Of a stretch of DNA of 50,979 nt, positions 23,754-30,445 are shown piece by piece. This DNA is from a virus (Duplodnaviria; Heunggongvirae; Uroviricota; Caudoviricetes). The notes beneath the pieces are model-generated. The model made no database searches. It was given only the letters and a program-made list of their open reading frames with translations, and was not told the origin of the DNA. Every line of letters begins with the position of its first letter. The first letter of the stretch is position 1. The position numbers and the translations under genes are program-made. The stretch lies in IMG/VR virus record IMGVR_UViG_2526164596_000013; one strand, 5' to 3'.

Positions 23754-24231
23754 CCAGCAAATCCGGTAATTTATCCCCTGCCCGCGCACACTGATTTGCG
23801 CCCTTTGCAATAAGGGTTTTCAGATGGTCAATATGACGTGGCGTTAAATCCGGGAACTGTCGCTGCATGGATAACGGAATGGAATCAAGCGTACTGGACA
23901 ATGCCATCGCCAGTTTGCTGAGGGCGAAAACGCAGAAGTCTGAATCGATGAGCTTACCTTCGGTTACCTGATTTTTAAGTTTTTGAGCTACAGCCTGTTC
24001 TTCTGTCAGTTCAGCTCTGGCCCGAAGCAGCCTTTCCTCCAGTTCTCCCCCGTCATCAGGTGTTCTCTGATTGTGTTGTCGCCGCTCGCGATCTATCTCC
24101 AGTACAGTTTTAACGTCATATAAAACTTCCCTCCCCCGACGTTCAACAGGAGGAACGCCCCATTTATCAAATGCCTGAACAGAGATACCGATGGAGGAGG
24201 CCATATCACTTTTATTCAATAAAAAGGCCAT
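23725..24231 (-). CDS. Nu1: terminase small subunit Nu1
   Basis: product ...MASSIGISVQAFDKWGVPPVERRGREVLYD...FCVFALSKLAMALSSTLDSIPLSMQRQFPDLTPRHIDHLK resembles lambda Nu1; start chosen at ATG 24231 (alternative 24249); 3' end overlaps A start. Confidence 0.75.
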   Translation of the reverse strand: MAFLLNKSDMASSIGISVQAFDKWGVPPVERRGREVLYDVKTVLEIDRERRQHNQRTPDDGGELEERLLRARAELTEEQAVAQKLKNQVTEGKLIDSDFCVFALSKLAMALSSTLDSIPLSMQRQFPDLTPRHIDHLKTLIAKGANQCARAGDKLPDLLDEYIRATTE

Positions 24232-24447
24232 CTCCTCTCCATAAGTCATCGATAAAAAGCGAAACAACAACCATGTGTTTTTGCAAAACCATTTGATATC
24301 ATTGACATTTTTCGCATTGACGACATCAAAACACATCGTAAGGTTGTTGTATTTATTTTATTTTCACCTTACTTATCAATTAGATATACCAAACAATTAA
24401 ACAACAACCACCCCCTCAAAAAATCTCATAAATAGTGAAAACGCGCG

Positions 24448-24459
24448 AGGTCGCCGCCC
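24448..24459 (-). other. cos: cosN cohesive-end site (12-nt GGGCGGCGACCT identical to lambda)
   Basis: rc of 24441-24470 reads GGGGCGGCGACCTCGCGCGTTTTCAC, matching the lambda left-end sequence GGGCGGCGACCTCGCGGGTTTTCGC; lies about 200 bp upstream of Nu1 as cosN/cosB does in lambda. Confidence 0.85.
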
Positions 24460-24665
24460 CGTAACCGGTCGGATCGCCGGAAAGGACCCACGAAATGATA
24501 ATGATTATCATCTATATAAGGTTTATCACAACATGTGTGTACGCCATCAAACCACGAGAAATAATCAATTATGACGCAGGTATCGTATTAATTGATCTGC
24601 GTCAAATTAACGTAAAAGCAACTTCAGATAATACAAATCAGCAACACTGAATATGGGGAAACATT

Positions 24666-24851
24666 ATGTCATCAAAGAACAGAACCCGCAGAACAACAAC
24701 CCGCAACATCCGATTTCCAAACCAGATGATTGAACAAATTAACATCGCTCTTGATCTGAAAGGTTCAGGAAACTTTTCAGCGTGGGTTATTGAAGCCTGC
24801 AGAAGAAGGCTGTCAACAGAGAGTTCGGGTATGAATTACATAATTAAGTAA
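24666..24851 (+). CDS. small ribbon-helix-helix-like protein (hypothetical), moron between Rz and cos
   Basis: 61-aa ORF opposite to the late genes; IRFPNQMIEQINIALDLKGSGNFSAWVIEACRRRL resembles an RHH (Arc/MetJ/CopG-type) fold; weak SD ggggaa. Confidence 0.4.
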   Translation: MSSKNRTRRTTTRNIRFPNQMIEQINIALDLKGSGNFSAWVIEACRRRLSTESSGMNYIIK

Positions 24852-24983
24852 CATGGTGTTCACAGAACACGCAGTTACCGGACACATCAGTTTTCCATTC
24901 GCTCCCCGGCAGTACAGGCTTCCCCTCTGACGGGATAGCCTGAAAAAATAACACAGAAAATTATTTGTTATAATTAATATAAC

Positions 24984-25124
24984 TTACTCAAAAAAAAGCG
25001 ACGAGAAAATCAGCATCAACGAACAATAAGCGCCAATACGTGATAACAAATGGCAGCCATATTTATCTGCAGTATAAGCAATGGACAGGATAACCACACC
25101 AGAAACCGTCAGCATAAAATCCAT
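24984..25124 (-). CDS. hypothetical 46-aa hydrophobic peptide
   Basis: ATG at 25124 preceded by GGGGAAG SD at 7-nt spacing; product MDFMLTVSGVVILSIAYTADKYGCHLLSRIGAYCSLMLIFSSLFFE; below ORF-track size cutoff; no homologue recognised. Confidence 0.3.
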   Translation of the reverse strand: MDFMLTVSGVVILSIAYTADKYGCHLLSRIGAYCSLMLIFSSLFFE

Positions 25125-25474
25125 TTGAACTTCCCCGGACAAAATCGACTCATCTAAAGATTTACAGCTCTTTTTATTATCAATATGTTAAAAGTAAAAT
25201 AAACAGATGTTCAATAACACGAATACAAAAACGTGCTGAAATTCAATGAATCCATTTCTGTGTCATCAATTAATAGTGATAAACATCCGGCTTCTTCCAC
25301 CATCGCACCGGACAGGCGACTATGAGGGGACAACGCCGCGCTCCGTTAACGCGGTAAACCCCGGTGTGTATCGTTTTTGATTATCCCCGCACACTCGCGC
25401 AGAGGAGTCTCCCTGTCGGGCTGCGGTCTCTGTTAATGAGGGAATACAGCGACGATACGGCGCATCAACAAAAC

Positions 25475-25948
25475 TTATTTCAGGCACTGAGTGCGGATAT
25501 AGTCCTGTGCCCCTTCCAGTTGCTTGTGCATCGTCATCAGCCGCTCTCTGAGGGTGAAATAATCCCGTGTAACGGTGTCTGCCAGTTGGGGGCCGGTTGC
25601 ATTATCCACGCCGGAGGTGGTGGGGGCTTCACGCACGGAGCCTGGACAGGTGGCGTTGATCCGCAGGCGCTTACGACCAGCGGCAACATCAGCGCGCAGA
25701 GTTTCATTTTCAGCTCTCGCATCGGATAATTCCCTCGAGTATTTTGCATCGAGCGCAGCAACATCGCGCTGGCGCACCTGCATATCAGTAATGGTTGCGT
25801 TCGCCAGCTTCAGTTCACTGGCTTTGTTATCGCGCTGCGCTTTGTAGGTAATCGCGTTATCACGGTAATGGTCTGTTGCCATCCACAGCGCACCACAGGC
25901 CACCAGCAGAATAACGATAAACGCGGAAAGCATTCGGTTTATGTTCAC
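25475..25948 (-). CDS. Rz: i-spanin Rz
   Basis: 157-aa ORF; [44 protein letters not shown]...[18 protein letters not shown] matches lambda Rz as recalled; N-terminal TM helix. Confidence 0.9.
25537..25722 (-). CDS. Rz1: o-spanin Rz1 (lipoprotein) embedded in Rz in +1 frame
   Basis: [22 protein letters not shown] lipobox followed by [14 protein letters not shown] proline-rich segment as in lambda Rz1; start at 25722 chosen by alignment. Confidence 0.8.
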
Positions 25949-26076
25949 CCCAGCAACCCCGACGAAGACAACATCATCCAGGCCATGGAAAGAAAAAGAG
26001 CAACCAGCATTAGTGAAAATGAAATGCCGACAATTACACAGAGGATCTTCGCCAGCGTTATGAGTTTGTCTGACAT
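25945..26076 (-). CDS. hypothetical 43-aa membrane peptide between endolysin and Rz
   Basis: ATG at 26076 preceded by AGGGAGG SD; product [43 protein letters not shown]; stop overlaps Rz start. Confidence 0.4.
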
Positions 26077-26090
26077 GCTTAATCCTCCCT

Positions 26091-26273
26091 TCACGATTTC
26101 AACGCAATGACCAGTTTTGCCAGCCCATACAGCATCGGGGACACAGCAACACCGACCGCTACCCACTTAATGGCAAAAGCCAGTGCTCTGCTGATGTCAT
26201 CAGTTACAGGCGCTTTCAGTTCAAGGCCATTTTTCATAGTCAACCTCAACAGAATTCGTTTATACTTCGCCAT
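26091..26273 (-). CDS. hypothetical 60-aa protein with C-terminal hydrophobic helix
   Basis: ATG at 26273 with AGGGAG-like SD; product [60 protein letters not shown]; start uncertain (ORF extends to 26306). Confidence 0.3.
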
Positions 26274-26304
26274 GTTCTCCCTTGCCTTACTCAAGGTCAG
26301 AAAC

Positions 26305-26345
26305 ACAAAACCCCGCTTGGTGCCAACAAACGGGGTTTTTACTTT
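26305..26345. terminator. hairpin with flanking T-runs on both strands between endolysin and downstream small ORFs
   Basis: aaaaccccg-(15 nt)-cggggttttt; T-rich on plus after the stem and on minus (ttttgtgttt) after the stem. Confidence 0.4.
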
Positions 26346-26429
26346 TATTCACTTACGTTTCGCCAGTTCGCAGGATTTCGTGTTATCCGCCCGCGTGGCC
26401 ATACCTTATTTTTCAGCAAAATATTCTGC

Positions 26430-26963
26430 TTATCTGTCGATTCCCCAGCACGCCAGCGCGCTCTCCTGGTCACGACGGGATACCTGACCATAACAGTTAT
26501 TTGAGCGGATACGGCAGTCTCTGCCACCGTCCTTAATCCACCAGCGAATCGCCTCACACGCTCCCCTGCGGTCACCAGCATTCAGCCGCTTATAAAACGT
26601 CGACGGGAAACACTTACCGGGGCCAATGTTATAGGGACAGAATGACGCTATACCCGCTTTCTGTGGTTCGGTCAGTGGAACTTTAATATTGCGCTCCACC
26701 CATGCCAGCGCCTTATCCCGTTCAATGGCATTAACCTGGTCGCATTTTTCCTTCGACAGTTTCATGCCCGGAATAACAGGTTTACCATCCACCATTGTGG
26801 CACCGCGGCAGATGGTCCAGATACCCGCACCATCACGGTATGCCGTTGTGTGGTTACCTTCTTTTTCATCCAGAAACTGGTCGAGAATATCAGGCGCAGG
26901 CGCACCGATGGCAATCAACGCCAGAACGGCAGCCGACAGGCCATATTTGATTTTGGTGTTCAT
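26430..26963 (-). CDS. R: SAR endolysin (phage-lysozyme family, phage 21 R-like)
   Basis: 177-aa ORF; N-terminal hydrophobic signal-anchor LSAAVLALIAIGAPAP followed by lysozyme core (EGNHTTAYRDGAGIWTICRGAT...); downstream of a pinholin. Confidence 0.8.
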   Translation of the reverse strand: MNTKIKYGLSAAVLALIAIGAPAPDILDQFLDEKEGNHTTAYRDGAGIWTICRGATMVDGKPVIPGMKLSKEKCDQVNAIERDKALAWVERNIKVPLTEPQKAGIASFCPYNIGPGKCFPSTFYKRLNAGDRRGACEAIRWWIKDGGRDCRIRSNNCYGQVSRRDQESALACWGIDR

Positions 26964-27091
26964 GGATATTTATCAGGATTTATCGGTTCCGAATCCCTGG
27001 ATATGTTAAATCTTCAGCCCGCCAGAGGTAGGACACTGGCGTTTTTCCTGATGGCTGAAATATATCTGACAATTTCAGTAGAGGATTAACC

Positions 27092-27406
27092 ATGCATAAC
27101 GATCAACATAATTATGATTTATGCCTGCAAGCCATAAATGAGCGGGTAAAATCAGAGTGCCTCTTACTCCTCCCACAAGAACACGATGCAGTAAAATCCA
27201 TTCAGGCTGAGCCGTATGGACATCTCACACCTGTGACTCTCGGCATTATCGCCAGAGCATTAACACAGCCCATGCTTATGCGTATTAAGACCAATATAAA
27301 TAACTGGTTGAATGAAGAATTAAGCTACCTTGATTGTGAGTGGGACAATCATTACGCAAAAACACAAAAAGAACGCATCTTCAGTCGATTATCCAGCAAC
27401 AGATAA
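27092..27406 (+). CDS. hypothetical protein (104 aa), oriented against the late operon
   Basis: ATG 27092 preceded by GAGGA SD at 7 nt; no recognised domain; convergent with 27416-28222. Confidence 0.45.
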   Translation: MHNDQHNYDLCLQAINERVKSECLLLLPQEHDAVKSIQAEPYGHLTPVTLGIIARALTQPMLMRIKTNINNWLNEELSYLDCEWDNHYAKTQKERIFSRLSSNR

Positions 27407-27415
27407 CGAGCCACC

Positions 27416-28222
27416 TTATATACGCCCTTTCAGATAAGTCATCCCCGGCTGCATCCAGTCAACAGGTGCTTTCTTAAAGGGCGTATTATCAAAATCACGC
27501 AGAAGAGCCTCCAGCACAACTGCATCATTGTCAGCACCACTGGCCATCATTTCAATCTCAGCTGCTACCTGCAGATATCCCATGCAACGACCAATGCGCT
27601 TCATCAGCCCCTGCTTTTTATTGTTCTTCAGGTAATCAATGGCAAATTCAATGAGCGCCTCACTATGCTGGTGCGATGGCGGTGTTAATTTCCCATTTTC
27701 TGAGATGGTTATTTTCCCGCCATCTCCGTATACAACAAAGGATGGCCGGTTACACTCCCATTCCTGATCTTTATCAGGTGCAGACGCAATAAAATAACGT
27801 TTATTTCCTTCCTCTCCGGCACTTTTAACCGTAATGGAGTACTCAGACTGCAGACAAGACGCCTCTTTTTCTGACCGCAGTGTTGACGGCGGCATCTTCA
27901 GAGAACCAGTAATTCTTCCCGGTAGCTTTCCTTTGTAGGTTATCAACACATCCTGCGCCTCTAAAATTATGGGGCGCTTTTCCGGCAACGGTTCGTTCCC
28001 TTCACATAACCCGGCAGCAACATCCATGAAAAACTGCTTCGCCTGCTTTTTCGCCTCAGCTTCGTAAAACTCCAGCGTGGCACCTTCAGTACGGTCAAGA
28101 CTAATCGCCACATCTGGCAACAACAGTGACGGATACCCACCAATTTCCAGTGCCACAGTAACAGTAATCTTATCCGGATAATTATTTATCCCTTTAACAC
28201 CCAGTTCGTATTTTTTCTTCAT
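27416..28222 (-). CDS. hypothetical protein (268 aa) inserted between holin and endolysin
   Basis: ATG 28222 lies 4 nt after the holin stop with GGGGGGAG SD inside the holin 3' end; no recognised domain. Confidence 0.55.
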   Translation of the reverse strand: MKKKYELGVKGINNYPDKITVTVALEIGGYPSLLLPDVAISLDRTEGATLEFYEAEAKKQAKQFFMDVAAGLCEGNEPLPEKRPIILEAQDVLITYKGKLPGRITGSLKMPPSTLRSEKEASCLQSEYSITVKSAGEEGNKRYFIASAPDKDQEWECNRPSFVVYGDGGKITISENGKLTPPSHQHSEALIEFAIDYLKNNKKQGLMKRIGRCMGYLQVAAEIEMMASGADNDAVVLEALLRDFDNTPFKKAPVDWMQPGMTYLKGRI

Positions 28223-28226
28223 CGCT

Positions 28227-28442
28227 TTACTCCCCCCGCGCCGCCTTACGACGGTCCTCTCTGATTTTGAAATACAGGTTAGTCAGATATGTCAGCAGCC
28301 CAAACAGCAGACTCCCCAGCACGCCTATTGCCGCCCACTGAGACGGGGAAACCCTGTCCAGCAACTGCAGGAACCAGTAGCCCGTTCCCACCGCTGACGT
28401 GGTGTATGACACACCTGTTGTGATTTTTTCCATCTGGTACAT
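28227..28442 (-). CDS. S: pinholin (phage 21 S21-like) with dual-start MYQM motif
   Basis: [71 protein letters not shown] closely resembles S21 (two TM domains, Met1/Met4 dual start, charged C-terminus); ORF extends upstream to 28547. Confidence 0.85.
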
Positions 28443-28591
28443 ACCCCGTCTCCCGTTATCCGGAAGCTGACAACAATAAAAAAGCCACCAGTTAACTACT
28501 GATGGCTCTGATAACTCATGCAGGCGTCTCAGACGATCCACTGACACTACCGGTGAGTTTAACGATACCTTCCATTTGACTGGCTCACTTT

Positions 28592-30445
28592 TTATGATGA
28601 TGCCGGTGCATTTATCTCCAGCACCAGACTTTCTATCTCAACGCCATACGTTGCATTTTTGGTAATATCCGTCAGCGTCAGTGCATTTAGTCCCACTGCC
28701 AGACTGTCTTTTATGGCCTGGAATGCCGGGCCAGCCACTCCATTCAGTTTCGGAGTAACCGTGGCACTGCCGGCGGTGAACACCAGTTCCAGCGTTTGCC
28801 AGTCATTACTGTAATTCCCGAACTCGCCCAACTTTGTGTTTCCTGCTTTCTTGTGATGCATCAGATTCAGTTTGCCGTCTGTGGTCTGGGTGAAGAACGA
28901 CATCAGGAACGGGTTACCAGTCCCGGTCATCGCCACGACGTCAGGTAACGCTACATCGGTATACAGATAAATTCCCAGGCCGAACTGGTTGTTGGTCAGT
29001 GCGCCTGACAGTCGAAACTTACAGCTCAGTCTGCCACCCCGTGTCAGCAGGGAGACTGCGTCATCCACCGGGCGCGTCAGGGACCAGGCTTTATTGCTCT
29101 GCTTGGTGATCTTAAATACACCCTCTGACAACTGAATTCCGCCATTCTTAATGCTCCAGCCCTGCGCAGCAGCGTCTCCGGCTGTCGGCAACAGGGAGAT
29201 TGTGCGTACGGATGCATCTTCAGACGGCCCCGATGGCGTGTCGCCGCCGGGCGAGGGTTTGATTTCCGGTGCCTTACCACTGATGAAGGCTGAGGTGCGC
29301 CCGGCTGCGTTCAGAATAGCGGTTGCCATACGATCCGGAATAATGCTCCTGCGCGCCCATGAACTGAAATGTGTCGGGCGGTTTGATGATACCTGGTTTC
29401 CATTCGTTCTCGATGCCGCACCGTAATATCCTGATGCCGGAATATCCGGATCTTCTGCCGGTGCGTTAGTGGCGGTATTGACGCCGTTACCGTCTGTCAT
29501 GAAGGGCACAAAATAAACGCCCTCACTCTCCCTGTTTTTATACCCGCCGTACACGGTGTCGTACTGGGTAGCGTATGTATTTTTCCAGTAATACGTCGTG
29601 TCACCACAAATCCACGGCACATTTACAGCACTGCCACCATGACACTGCGCGTTAAACACAGTGAGGTCAGCACGAAACTGCTTCAGCATGGCTGTAAACA
29701 GCGCAGGTTGCTGTGCGTAGGTGGCGGCGTTCATGTCAAACTCTCCCTGCATCCAGCACACCGCCAGCAACACATTTTTCGGGTTCTTCTGTAATGCAGC
29801 TTTAGTGCGCGCAATCAGGTCCTGATATAACGGTTTACCCACACCCCAGCGTGCCGAATCCTGGCTGGCCCCCGCGTCCGCACTGAATGTCCCCTCCGCG
29901 CCCTTGGTGAATGCCGAACCACCACGACAGCATGGTACCAGCAGGATCCCCGCGTTATTCGGGATATACGGGAGCAGTTTTTTGGCAATATGTAAGCCCT
30001 GGCCGACACAGCCGTACTGCCCTTTGCTCAGGTCTGCCTTCGGATGATTCAGCGTACTCATATCCTGCACATCATGCAGACAGTGGTCAGCCGGGATGAT
30101 GTCGTTATACGTACAACTCTCTCCACCCGGAGTTACCGTGCTGCGGCGCGCCAGCTGTTTAATGCGCGGATCCGGAGCATCGTAAGAATCCGGTAACGGA
30201 AGCCCTTCACCGTAGGCCATGCCGTTGGACTGTCCGGCAAGCACAACCACGTAGAACCAGTCCGGCTCAGATGAAGGGCCGACCTGTGGATCTCCTTCAA
30301 TAGCCACCGCCTGCATCAGTGTGTACGGCGTAATGGCAACCGGTCCGCCATATGGCTGCCAGCCCTCTTTCAGTTTGTGTGTCAGCTTTTCCGCAAGGTC
30401 TGACGGCGACGCCGCCCTGACAACATCATAGTGTTTAAATGCCAT
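28592..30445 (-). CDS. NanS-p-like sialate O-acetylesterase (N-terminal DUF1737-like region + SASA esterase), Stx-phage-type moron
   Basis: 617-aa ORF starting [38 protein letters not shown]..., GGSAF/GQSN-type esterase motifs; same position (between tRNA cluster and S) as the large esterase ORF of Stx phages; GGGAGGA SD. Confidence 0.7.

Follow-up and report, generated by a model that had tools for sequence, protein, structure and literature searches.

In phage P2, the gene for the membrane protein LysA lies between those of the endolysin K and the spanins LysB/LysC, and its product (~141 aa, several helices) delays lysis and is non-essential. In the Shewanella phage LambdaSo, the 65-aa membrane protein Lcc6 acts at the holin step and is required for lysis by a pinholin and a signal-anchor-release (SAR) endolysin (bioRxiv 10.1101/2024.01.23.576932). 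Extra membrane proteins that cooperate with SAR endolysins are also known from phage P1 (LydC and LydD; PMC9025707) and from phage Mu (the releasin gp25, DUF2730; PMC9239132, and as cited in bioRxiv 10.1101/2024.01.23.576932). According to the recent reports on the Mu releasin and Lcc6, the standard parts list of holin, endolysin and spanin is incomplete. The window analysed here, a 50,979-nt stretch of a Caudoviricetes record (IMGVR_UViG_2526164596_000013) that belongs to an E. coli prophage, carries between its endolysin gene R and its spanin gene Rz a terminator-like hairpin followed by two small genes, ORF60 and ORF43, named after the lengths of their products. Sequence comparison across related loci identifies both as conserved protein-coding genes, and the unit as an instance of shuffling peptide-gene arrays that occur mainly in lysis cassettes of unrelated makeup. 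The favoured reading, with a probability of about 0.45, is that the products are accessory lysis peptides of the late operon that would act at the inner membrane. An earlier note, which had reported about 500 bp between endolysin and Rz, was right as to the elements: 481 nt separate the R stop from a GTG start of Rz, or 496 nt from the RefSeq ATG, and everything described is present, on the minus strand. Its view of the region as a local oddity, however, gives way to that of one case of a widespread shuffling array.

None of Lcc6, the Mu releasin, LydC/LydD and LysA is a known homologue of ORF60 or ORF43. As in lambda S105/S107 and phage 21 S68/S71, ORF60 is a small membrane protein of a lysis cassette with two plausible starts, of which the longer form would be the more positive; unlike in those pairs, the starts are 12 codons apart (vs 1-3), there is one C-terminal helix and no charged tail, and no holin hidden Markov model matches. 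The genes lie between endolysin and spanin genes as does lysA of P2, although the peptides are far smaller than LysA. Like Lcc6, they are predicted to be very small single-pass peptides of the inner membrane, and both phages are lambdoid and combine a pinholin with a SAR endolysin; Lcc6, compared by description only, carries its helix at the N-terminus, with 43 aa of cytoplasmic tail behind it, and is an essential protein encoded near int/xis, outside the cassette. Mu gp25 and P1 LydC/LydD are larger, and no DUF2730 or holin family is matched here.

Conservation and the ratio of non-synonymous to synonymous substitution (dN/dS), not ORF length, set both ORFs apart from chance. Specifically, phage records and IMG/VR supplied 228 loci with 38 unique DNA variants of ORF60 and 30 of ORF43; over these variants, dN/dS is 0.24 in the ORF60 frame against 0.60 and 1.90 in the other frames, and 0.30 in the ORF43 frame against 0.78 and 1.93. 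The ORF60 frame is intact in all 38 variants, ORF43 is frameshifted in a few loci, and both genes have strong ribosome-binding sites that are conserved in relatives. Of 5,426 complete E. coli genomes, 990 (~18%) contain 80% or more of the 551-nt region, and the plaque-forming phages PhiR5_2 and PhiR12 carry both genes. A large fraction of E. coli prophages have these peptide genes in their lysis cassettes. Close homologues are confined to Escherichia and Salmonella; in a profile search of 1.8 billion representative proteins, further members of the ORF60 family came from Klebsiella, Yersinia and Achromobacter, and a scan of genome contigs with the family alignment gave no confirmed match. Both ORFs are already known as annotated hypothetical proteins in RefSeq, and ORF60 also as a coding sequence in phage records. 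What appears to be undescribed is the arrangement in hairpin-bounded arrays, the fact that these recur in lysis cassettes of unrelated types, and the possible dual start. Literature searches for the two RefSeq proteins and for genes between R and Rz returned nothing relevant, the searched passages of a comparative genomics study of Shiga toxin (Stx) phages (PMC8136144) do not mention either ORF, and the prophage small RNAs Pas, AgvB, AsxR and STnc100 are described upstream of the holin, not in this gap.

ORF60, a member of what is here called family A, starts at an ATG with the ribosome-binding site AAGGGAG 3 nt upstream and comprises a basic N-terminal segment of ~29 aa (charge +5 before the hydrophobic window) and, as the earlier note had proposed, a C-terminal transmembrane helix, which is moderately hydrophobic: the best 19-residue hydropathy window spans residues 38-56, with a score of 1.88 that equals the one of the SAR segment of R, and AlphaFold2 (AF2) predicts a helix over residues 25-59. 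ORF60 also has a conserved motif, RAxAFAI[KR], and its C-terminus (...LVIALKS) has no charged tail; remote members follow the pattern Y[KR][KR]..R[LM][ST]MK[ND]G.E..AP and often end with RWW. A second start at an internal ATG, Met13, is possible on several grounds of sequence. Met13 is near-invariant across the family; a Shine-Dalgarno-like 4-mer (GAGG) precedes it in 27 of 30 unique contexts, in one of them with different encoded amino acids; wherever an Arg is encoded at that upstream position (28 contexts), its codon is one of the rare AGG and AGA, with CGN absent; and dN/dS is 1.05 over codons 1-12 and 0.17 over codons 13-60. The 60-aa form would carry 4 basic residues more than the 48-aa form. 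A 71-aa version from the GTG at 26306 was rejected, as this codon directly adjoins the hairpin stem on its 3' side, lacks a ribosome-binding site and is not the start used by RefSeq (ATG). Masking of the ribosome-binding site by RNA structure was likewise discarded, the leader folding no better than shuffled sequences (z = -0.1 to -1.1).

ORF43 (family B) is nearly all membrane helix. The earlier note had seen a two-helix peptide; there is instead a single hydrophobic stretch (hydropathy 2.89) that AF2 models as one unbroken helix over residues 2-38, with a predicted local distance difference test (pLDDT) score of 88, and the C-terminus (...SSSGLLG) is again without a charged tail. The Shine-Dalgarno sequence reported before this gene, AAGGGAGGA, is found 6 nt upstream of the ATG and is kept in relatives or exchanged for GGGGCAGGGG. 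A variant at 65% identity (MSDSIIKLARILCVVVGLSF...) differs almost solely by I/L/V and K/R exchanges. The gene is usually the last of its array, directly ahead of Rz; the proposed overlap of its stop with the Rz start holds for the GTG only (GTGA, adding 5 codons to Rz) and not for the RefSeq ATG, which lies 11 nt downstream, and in relatives the Rz ATG is 8-9 nt past the ORF43 stop. Identical ORF43 proteins are paired with Rz alleles of 71-100% identity, which implies that ORF43 and Rz recombine freely. In Stx phages a homologue lies between ant and Rz; the one of phage 933W (L229, 2424-2578) is omitted from the reference annotation.

The hairpin that precedes both genes has 13 pairs, the longest stem among 8 terminator-like hits in 5 kb (chance expectation 4.7 +/- 2.2), and a folding energy of -18.9 kcal/mol (z = -3.7) that none of 200 shuffles equals. 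A T-run follows the stem on the 3' side in either direction, TTTTGTGTTTCT in the lysis-gene sense and TTTTTACTTTTATT on the + strand; together with the G+C-rich stem-loop, this makes the label of a bidirectional-looking terminator apt as a description. In relatives the inner stem varies with pairing kept (TTTG/CAAG, TTTG/CAAA, ATTG/CAGT, GCTG/CAG(T)C), the T-runs are usually on both sides, and Stx phages have an unrelated stem (AGGCACC/GGTGCCT) at the equivalent position. All of the relatives' variant hairpins fold (-17 to -30 kcal/mol, z = -3.5 to -5.4), as judged from single-sequence folds, since the MAFFT alignment is out of register for bulged stems. Moreover, a similar hairpin stands 5' of ORF60 relatives or of the array behind endolysins of the GH108 and PG_binding_1/GH19-like types, a capsid gene and tail-fibre genes, and the hairpin is taken here to be the 5' edge of the peptide-gene array. 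The ~90-nt linker between the R stop and the hairpin is common to phages with different cargo in the slot, and a stable hairpin always comes next. Its opening motif GCAGAATATTTTGCTGAAAAAT also occurs after the lipoprotein gene of locus L179 and in the gene-flanking repeats of locus L233, and such a boundary motif looks like a recombination joint. The motif, as GCAGAATATTTTGCTGAAAAAT or TTTTGTGYCTGAAAAAYG, lies at 26407-26429 of the window, at 2534-2556 of L179 and at 2905-2935 and 3250-3280 of L233, where it forms a direct repeat on either side of an inserted peptide gene.

Between endolysin and Rz lies a mosaic hot spot in which at least five families of small, single-helix, mostly C-terminally anchored peptides are shuffled: A and B are joined by A' (28 aa), C (31 aa), D (50 aa) and E (49 aa), with the helix at the C-terminal end in A, A', C and E. 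The order of the window (S21-R-hairpin-A-B-Rz) recurs in 133 loci, and other arrays are D-A-E-A', A-B-A-A', C-B-A(-A') and A-A'; Stx phages of the 933W/P27 type have an antirepressor gene and B in the slot. The lysis genes around the array change as well. In 33 loci Phage_holin_8, Phage_holin_3_7 and a GH108 endolysin are followed by hairpin-A-B and a 60-aa lipoprotein; L237 has a holin, an R21-like endolysin, hairpin, A, a methyltransferase and Rz; L240 has a PG_binding_1 endolysin (weak GH19 match), hairpin, A and a lipoprotein. L232 is a three-cassette array (capsid, hairpin, A, hairpin, A', a phrog_920 holin, hairpin, X, C, endolysin) in which a near-identical hairpin opens each cassette and the endolysin is of the phrog_7 lysozyme type with a hydrophobic N-terminus. 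In a widespread Yersinia enterocolitica prophage remnant, found in >1,600 index blocks of the collection, A ends 1 nt before Rz. Among the distinct contexts examined, positions beside an endolysin, a holin or Rz clearly predominate; ORF60 relatives have such neighbours in Escherichia, Salmonella and Yersinia.

Some of these loci have features of their own. The Y. enterocolitica remnant (chromosomes L243-L245, 3001-3601) comprises little beyond the family A gene, Rz and a DUF4222 gene, beside host genes. A gene for a DNA methyltransferase-like protein of 310-311 aa occupies the slot of two otherwise different phages (L144, a 311-aa ORF at positions 493-1428 of the interval that follows the R stop; L237, 3134-4066). 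Cassettes that end with a lipoprotein gene (L179, 561-2522, ~60 aa, phrog_7528, with 32 similar IMG/VR loci; L240, 2026-3299) may use a non-canonical mode of outer-membrane disruption: no i-spanin is recognised within ~1.6 kb downstream in the GH108 cassette, nor near the PG_binding_1/GH19-like cassette of L240.

In the mechanism proposed for the favoured reading, the unit, which has no promoter of its own and is packed closely among the late lysis genes in the same orientation as they, would be transcribed within the Q-antiterminated late operon alongside S, R and Rz/Rz1. The Q-modified polymerase would read through the hairpin, which would act as a boundary that halts unmodified transcription and might also stabilise the upstream S-R message. 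Late in infection both products would enter the inner membrane, ORF60 as a C-terminally anchored peptide with its basic N-terminus in the cytoplasm and ORF43 as a bare single-pass helix. There, as accessory and dispensable factors, they would modulate the step of lysis that takes place at this membrane (when the holin triggers or the membrane depolarises) rather than being hole-formers indispensable to the phage, and ORF60 would probably yield two isoforms, from Met1 and Met13, recalling dual-start holin/antiholin genes. That the peptides would be dispensable is suggested by the loci with a frameshifted ORF43 and by the slot being empty in the Qin prophage of E. coli K-12, in which a homologous R (86% DNA identity) directly overlaps rzpQ. 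As the slot is thus absent from K-12, this strain was discarded as a model.

The accessory role can be inferred from association: the unit and its relatives recur in lysis cassettes with unrelated holins and endolysins. This pattern fits the suggestion of lysis regulators or antiholin-like factors in the earlier note, which is plausible and supported in part. Several observations weigh against an accessory lysis role. Neither ORF resembles a characterised holin, antiholin or releasin in Pfam, PHROG, NCBIfam or PDB sequence searches; like holins, both have a predicted membrane helix and are encoded next to the endolysin in the cassette, but their C-termini lack the charged tail that holins typically bear; the many unrelated holins and endolysins argue against a specific partner protein; conservation of a protein motif alone could equally explain the Met13 data; and some relatives of ORF60 lie outside lysis cassettes, downstream of tail-fibre genes at the ends of prophages (L230, L233-235), among tail genes (L238) or ahead of baseplate genes (an Achromobacter myovirus-type contig), so that the family is not strictly tied to lysis. 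In the individual searches, ORF60 has no Pfam match and ORF43 only a sub-threshold one (DUF3930, E=0.08), the PHROG families matched by both are of unknown function and outside the lysis category, the releasin domain DUF2730 finds no Pfam match at E<=0.1, and NCBIfam, PADLOC and PDB sequence searches return nothing for the two ORFs or the other peptide families.

The occurrences in tail modules, together with the lack of a specific partner, keep a serious rival in play, namely moron-type cargo unrelated to lysis, in which accessory membrane proteins with roles such as superinfection exclusion, interference with membrane proteins of the host or of rival prophages, or anti-defence would occupy permissive, hairpin-marked joints of the late operon. 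The moron concept for lambdoid phages reportedly goes back to Juhala and Hendrix, and the present unit resembles such elements as a variable insert between conserved late genes with a terminator-like hairpin at its boundary. The variable presence and combinatorial shuffling of the peptide families fit this explanation, as do the antirepressor and DNA methyltransferase genes housed in the same slot, a relative that matches a PHROG labelled 'moron ... membrane protein', and the direct repeats of the hairpin unit around a gene in L233, as recombinational insertion predicts. Classical morons, however, bring their own promoter, and have a terminator downstream, whereas here the hairpin is upstream, none lies between ORF43 and Rz, and no promoter is found between hairpin and genes, so that expression in the lysogen is not expected; the lack of a PADLOC match and the strong bias to lysis cassettes also count against cargo of this kind, which is possible, if on balance unlikely. 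A further rival is a role at the outer membrane, as part of an envelope-disruption step taken with the downstream Rz/Rz1 or lipoprotein, for instance as anchor or helper of a non-canonical spanin. The array usually lies directly 5' of Rz or of a ~60-aa lipoprotein gene, with stop and start codons often overlapping or nearly touching, and the GH108 cassette without a recognised i-spanin would suit such a helper; on the other hand, at most a few residues extend beyond the helix, too few for either peptide to bridge the periplasm, the Rz/Rz1 pair of the window is complete, and the free recombination of ORF43 with Rz alleles points away from a dedicated partnership, which leaves this role very improbable.

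The small toxin raised in the earlier note fares little better and is quite unlikely. In its most specific form it would be a type I toxin-antitoxin-like pair in which the ribosome-binding site of the toxin, ORF60, is masked by a ~78-nt antisense RNA that runs from a weak sigma-70-like site to the hairpin, whose + strand side would terminate it. The geometry of SymR/SymE and of P22 sar resembles the layout of hairpin and ORF60, and with these and Hok/Sok the locus shares a small hydrophobic peptide, as both ORFs encode, and a two-way terminator that would allow antisense cover of the ribosome-binding site. The hairpin accompanies ORF60 relatives into unrelated contexts, nearly always with the antisense-side T-run; the TATACT -10 element is conserved in L179, L230, L233 and GER2; and synonymous change (pS) is 0.07 over codons 1-12 of ORF60 against 0.18 over codons 13-60. 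On the other side, A-tracts are common upstream of strong terminators; sigma-70-like sites are at chance level in the region (7 found vs 6.8 expected), and the promoter-like site falls within coding sequence that is conserved anyway; the -10 element is lost in L231 and L232; and the high 5' nucleotide identity may merely reflect recent recombination, from which it is inseparable, so that it was set aside as a sign of an RNA element. The putative antisense promoter was accordingly retained only within this minor rival, since it scores no better than chance and distant relatives do not keep it. A toxin promoter is missing too, with no sigma-70-like site in the 33 nt between hairpin and ORF60 ATG, and Rfam yields no antitoxin RNA: its scan of 24000-29500 gave two hits at chance level, a rimP leader (E=0.58) and a eukaryotic long non-coding RNA, and a known RNA family was rejected. 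The least probable alternative is that the ORFs are non-functional, or scars left by recombination at a mosaic joint. The region does recombine a great deal, and databases hold many truncated, fused and frameshifted versions; the frame-specific synonymous excess nevertheless largely refutes this explanation, and the conserved ribosome-binding sites, the conservative substitutions between the 65%-identical variants and the homologues in Salmonella, Yersinia, Klebsiella and Achromobacter speak against it as well.

Beyond the favoured accessory lysis role, a broader proposal is that the hairpin-bounded arrays, in which at least five families of single-helix micro-proteins (28-64 aa, mostly C-terminally anchored) are combinatorially shuffled, would be an accessory module of Enterobacterales phage lysis cassettes not described before, and their products a new class of regulators of the lysis clock, serving pinholin/SAR-lysozyme, canonical-holin/GH108 and PG_binding_1/GH19-like systems, with dual-start isoforms of ORF60 that differ in membrane behaviour; in this extended form the idea is doubtful. 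Lysis timing sets phage burst size and, in Stx phages, toxin release as well. Should the peptides tune lysis, they would offer a new means, cheap and tractable, of acting on the lysis clock, and would be a variable of Stx-phage biology that has gone unrecognised; otherwise the locus is still a striking case of micro-protein genes shuffled at a defined phage joint. The features of the window are collected in Table 1.

Table 1. Features of the endolysin-to-Rz region and of the neighbouring lysis genes, in window coordinates.
Feature	Position	Strand	Details
ORF60 (family A), WP_001151823.1	26273-26091	-	phrog_1115/4493, E=2.6e-42 and 4.3e-30
Internal ATG (Met13) of ORF60, putative second start	26235-26237	-	GAGG 6 nt upstream; 48-aa isoform
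ORF43 (family B), WP_001280932.1	26076-25945	-	phrog_4906, E=2.1e-23
ORF43 ribosome-binding site AAGGGAGGA	26083-26091	-	6 nt before ATG; overlapped by the ORF60 stop TGA (26093-26091)
Terminator-like hairpin	26296-26349 (stem 26307-26339)	both	Core CCCCG...CGGGG lengthened by A/T pairs; T-runs
Conserved ~90-nt linker after the R stop	26340-26429	-	Opens with GCAGAATATTTTGCTGAAAAAT; alignment of 48 unique R 3' flanks
Weak sigma-70-like site, putative antisense promoter	26237-26266	+	TAGTCA-18-TATACT; 9/12 matches
Endolysin R, SAR-type phage lysozyme	26963-26430	-	PF00959, E=2.8e-25; phrog_7; hydrophobic N-terminal segment
Rz i-spanin	25948 (GTG) or 25933 (RefSeq ATG) to 25475	-	PF03245, E=7e-47
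Rz1 o-spanin	Inside ORF 25537-25764, embedded in Rz	-	PF06085, E=7e-20
S21-type class II holin (pinholin), 71 aa	28442-28227	-	N-terminus MYQMEK; PF04971, E=3.7e-32; RefSeq coding sequence
YdfR/DUF1327-fusion ORF, between holin and R	28222-27416	-
104-aa ORF, opposite strand, between holin and R	27092-27406	+	phrog_1853

The lysis genes of the window follow one another on the minus strand as holin, fusion ORF, R, gap and Rz/Rz1. The N-terminus of the holin, MYQMEK, has two Met codons like the dual start of S21 (MKSM) and no basic residue in between (28433-28442, -); because of this, a charge-based antiholin isoform of this holin may be absent. The fusion ORF behind it encodes 268 aa, with a YdfR/DUF1327 N-terminus joined to a phrog_1085 C-terminus, and for the identical sequence RefSeq annotates only a truncated YdfR pseudogene. 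The 104-aa ORF has no match in Pfam, NCBIfam or PADLOC. Lastly, a 46-aa hydrophobic ORF (WP_000347013.1; 24984-25124, -) lies downstream of Rz, and a gene of the YlcI/YnfO family (24666-24851, +) is oriented toward the lysis genes from the opposite strand.

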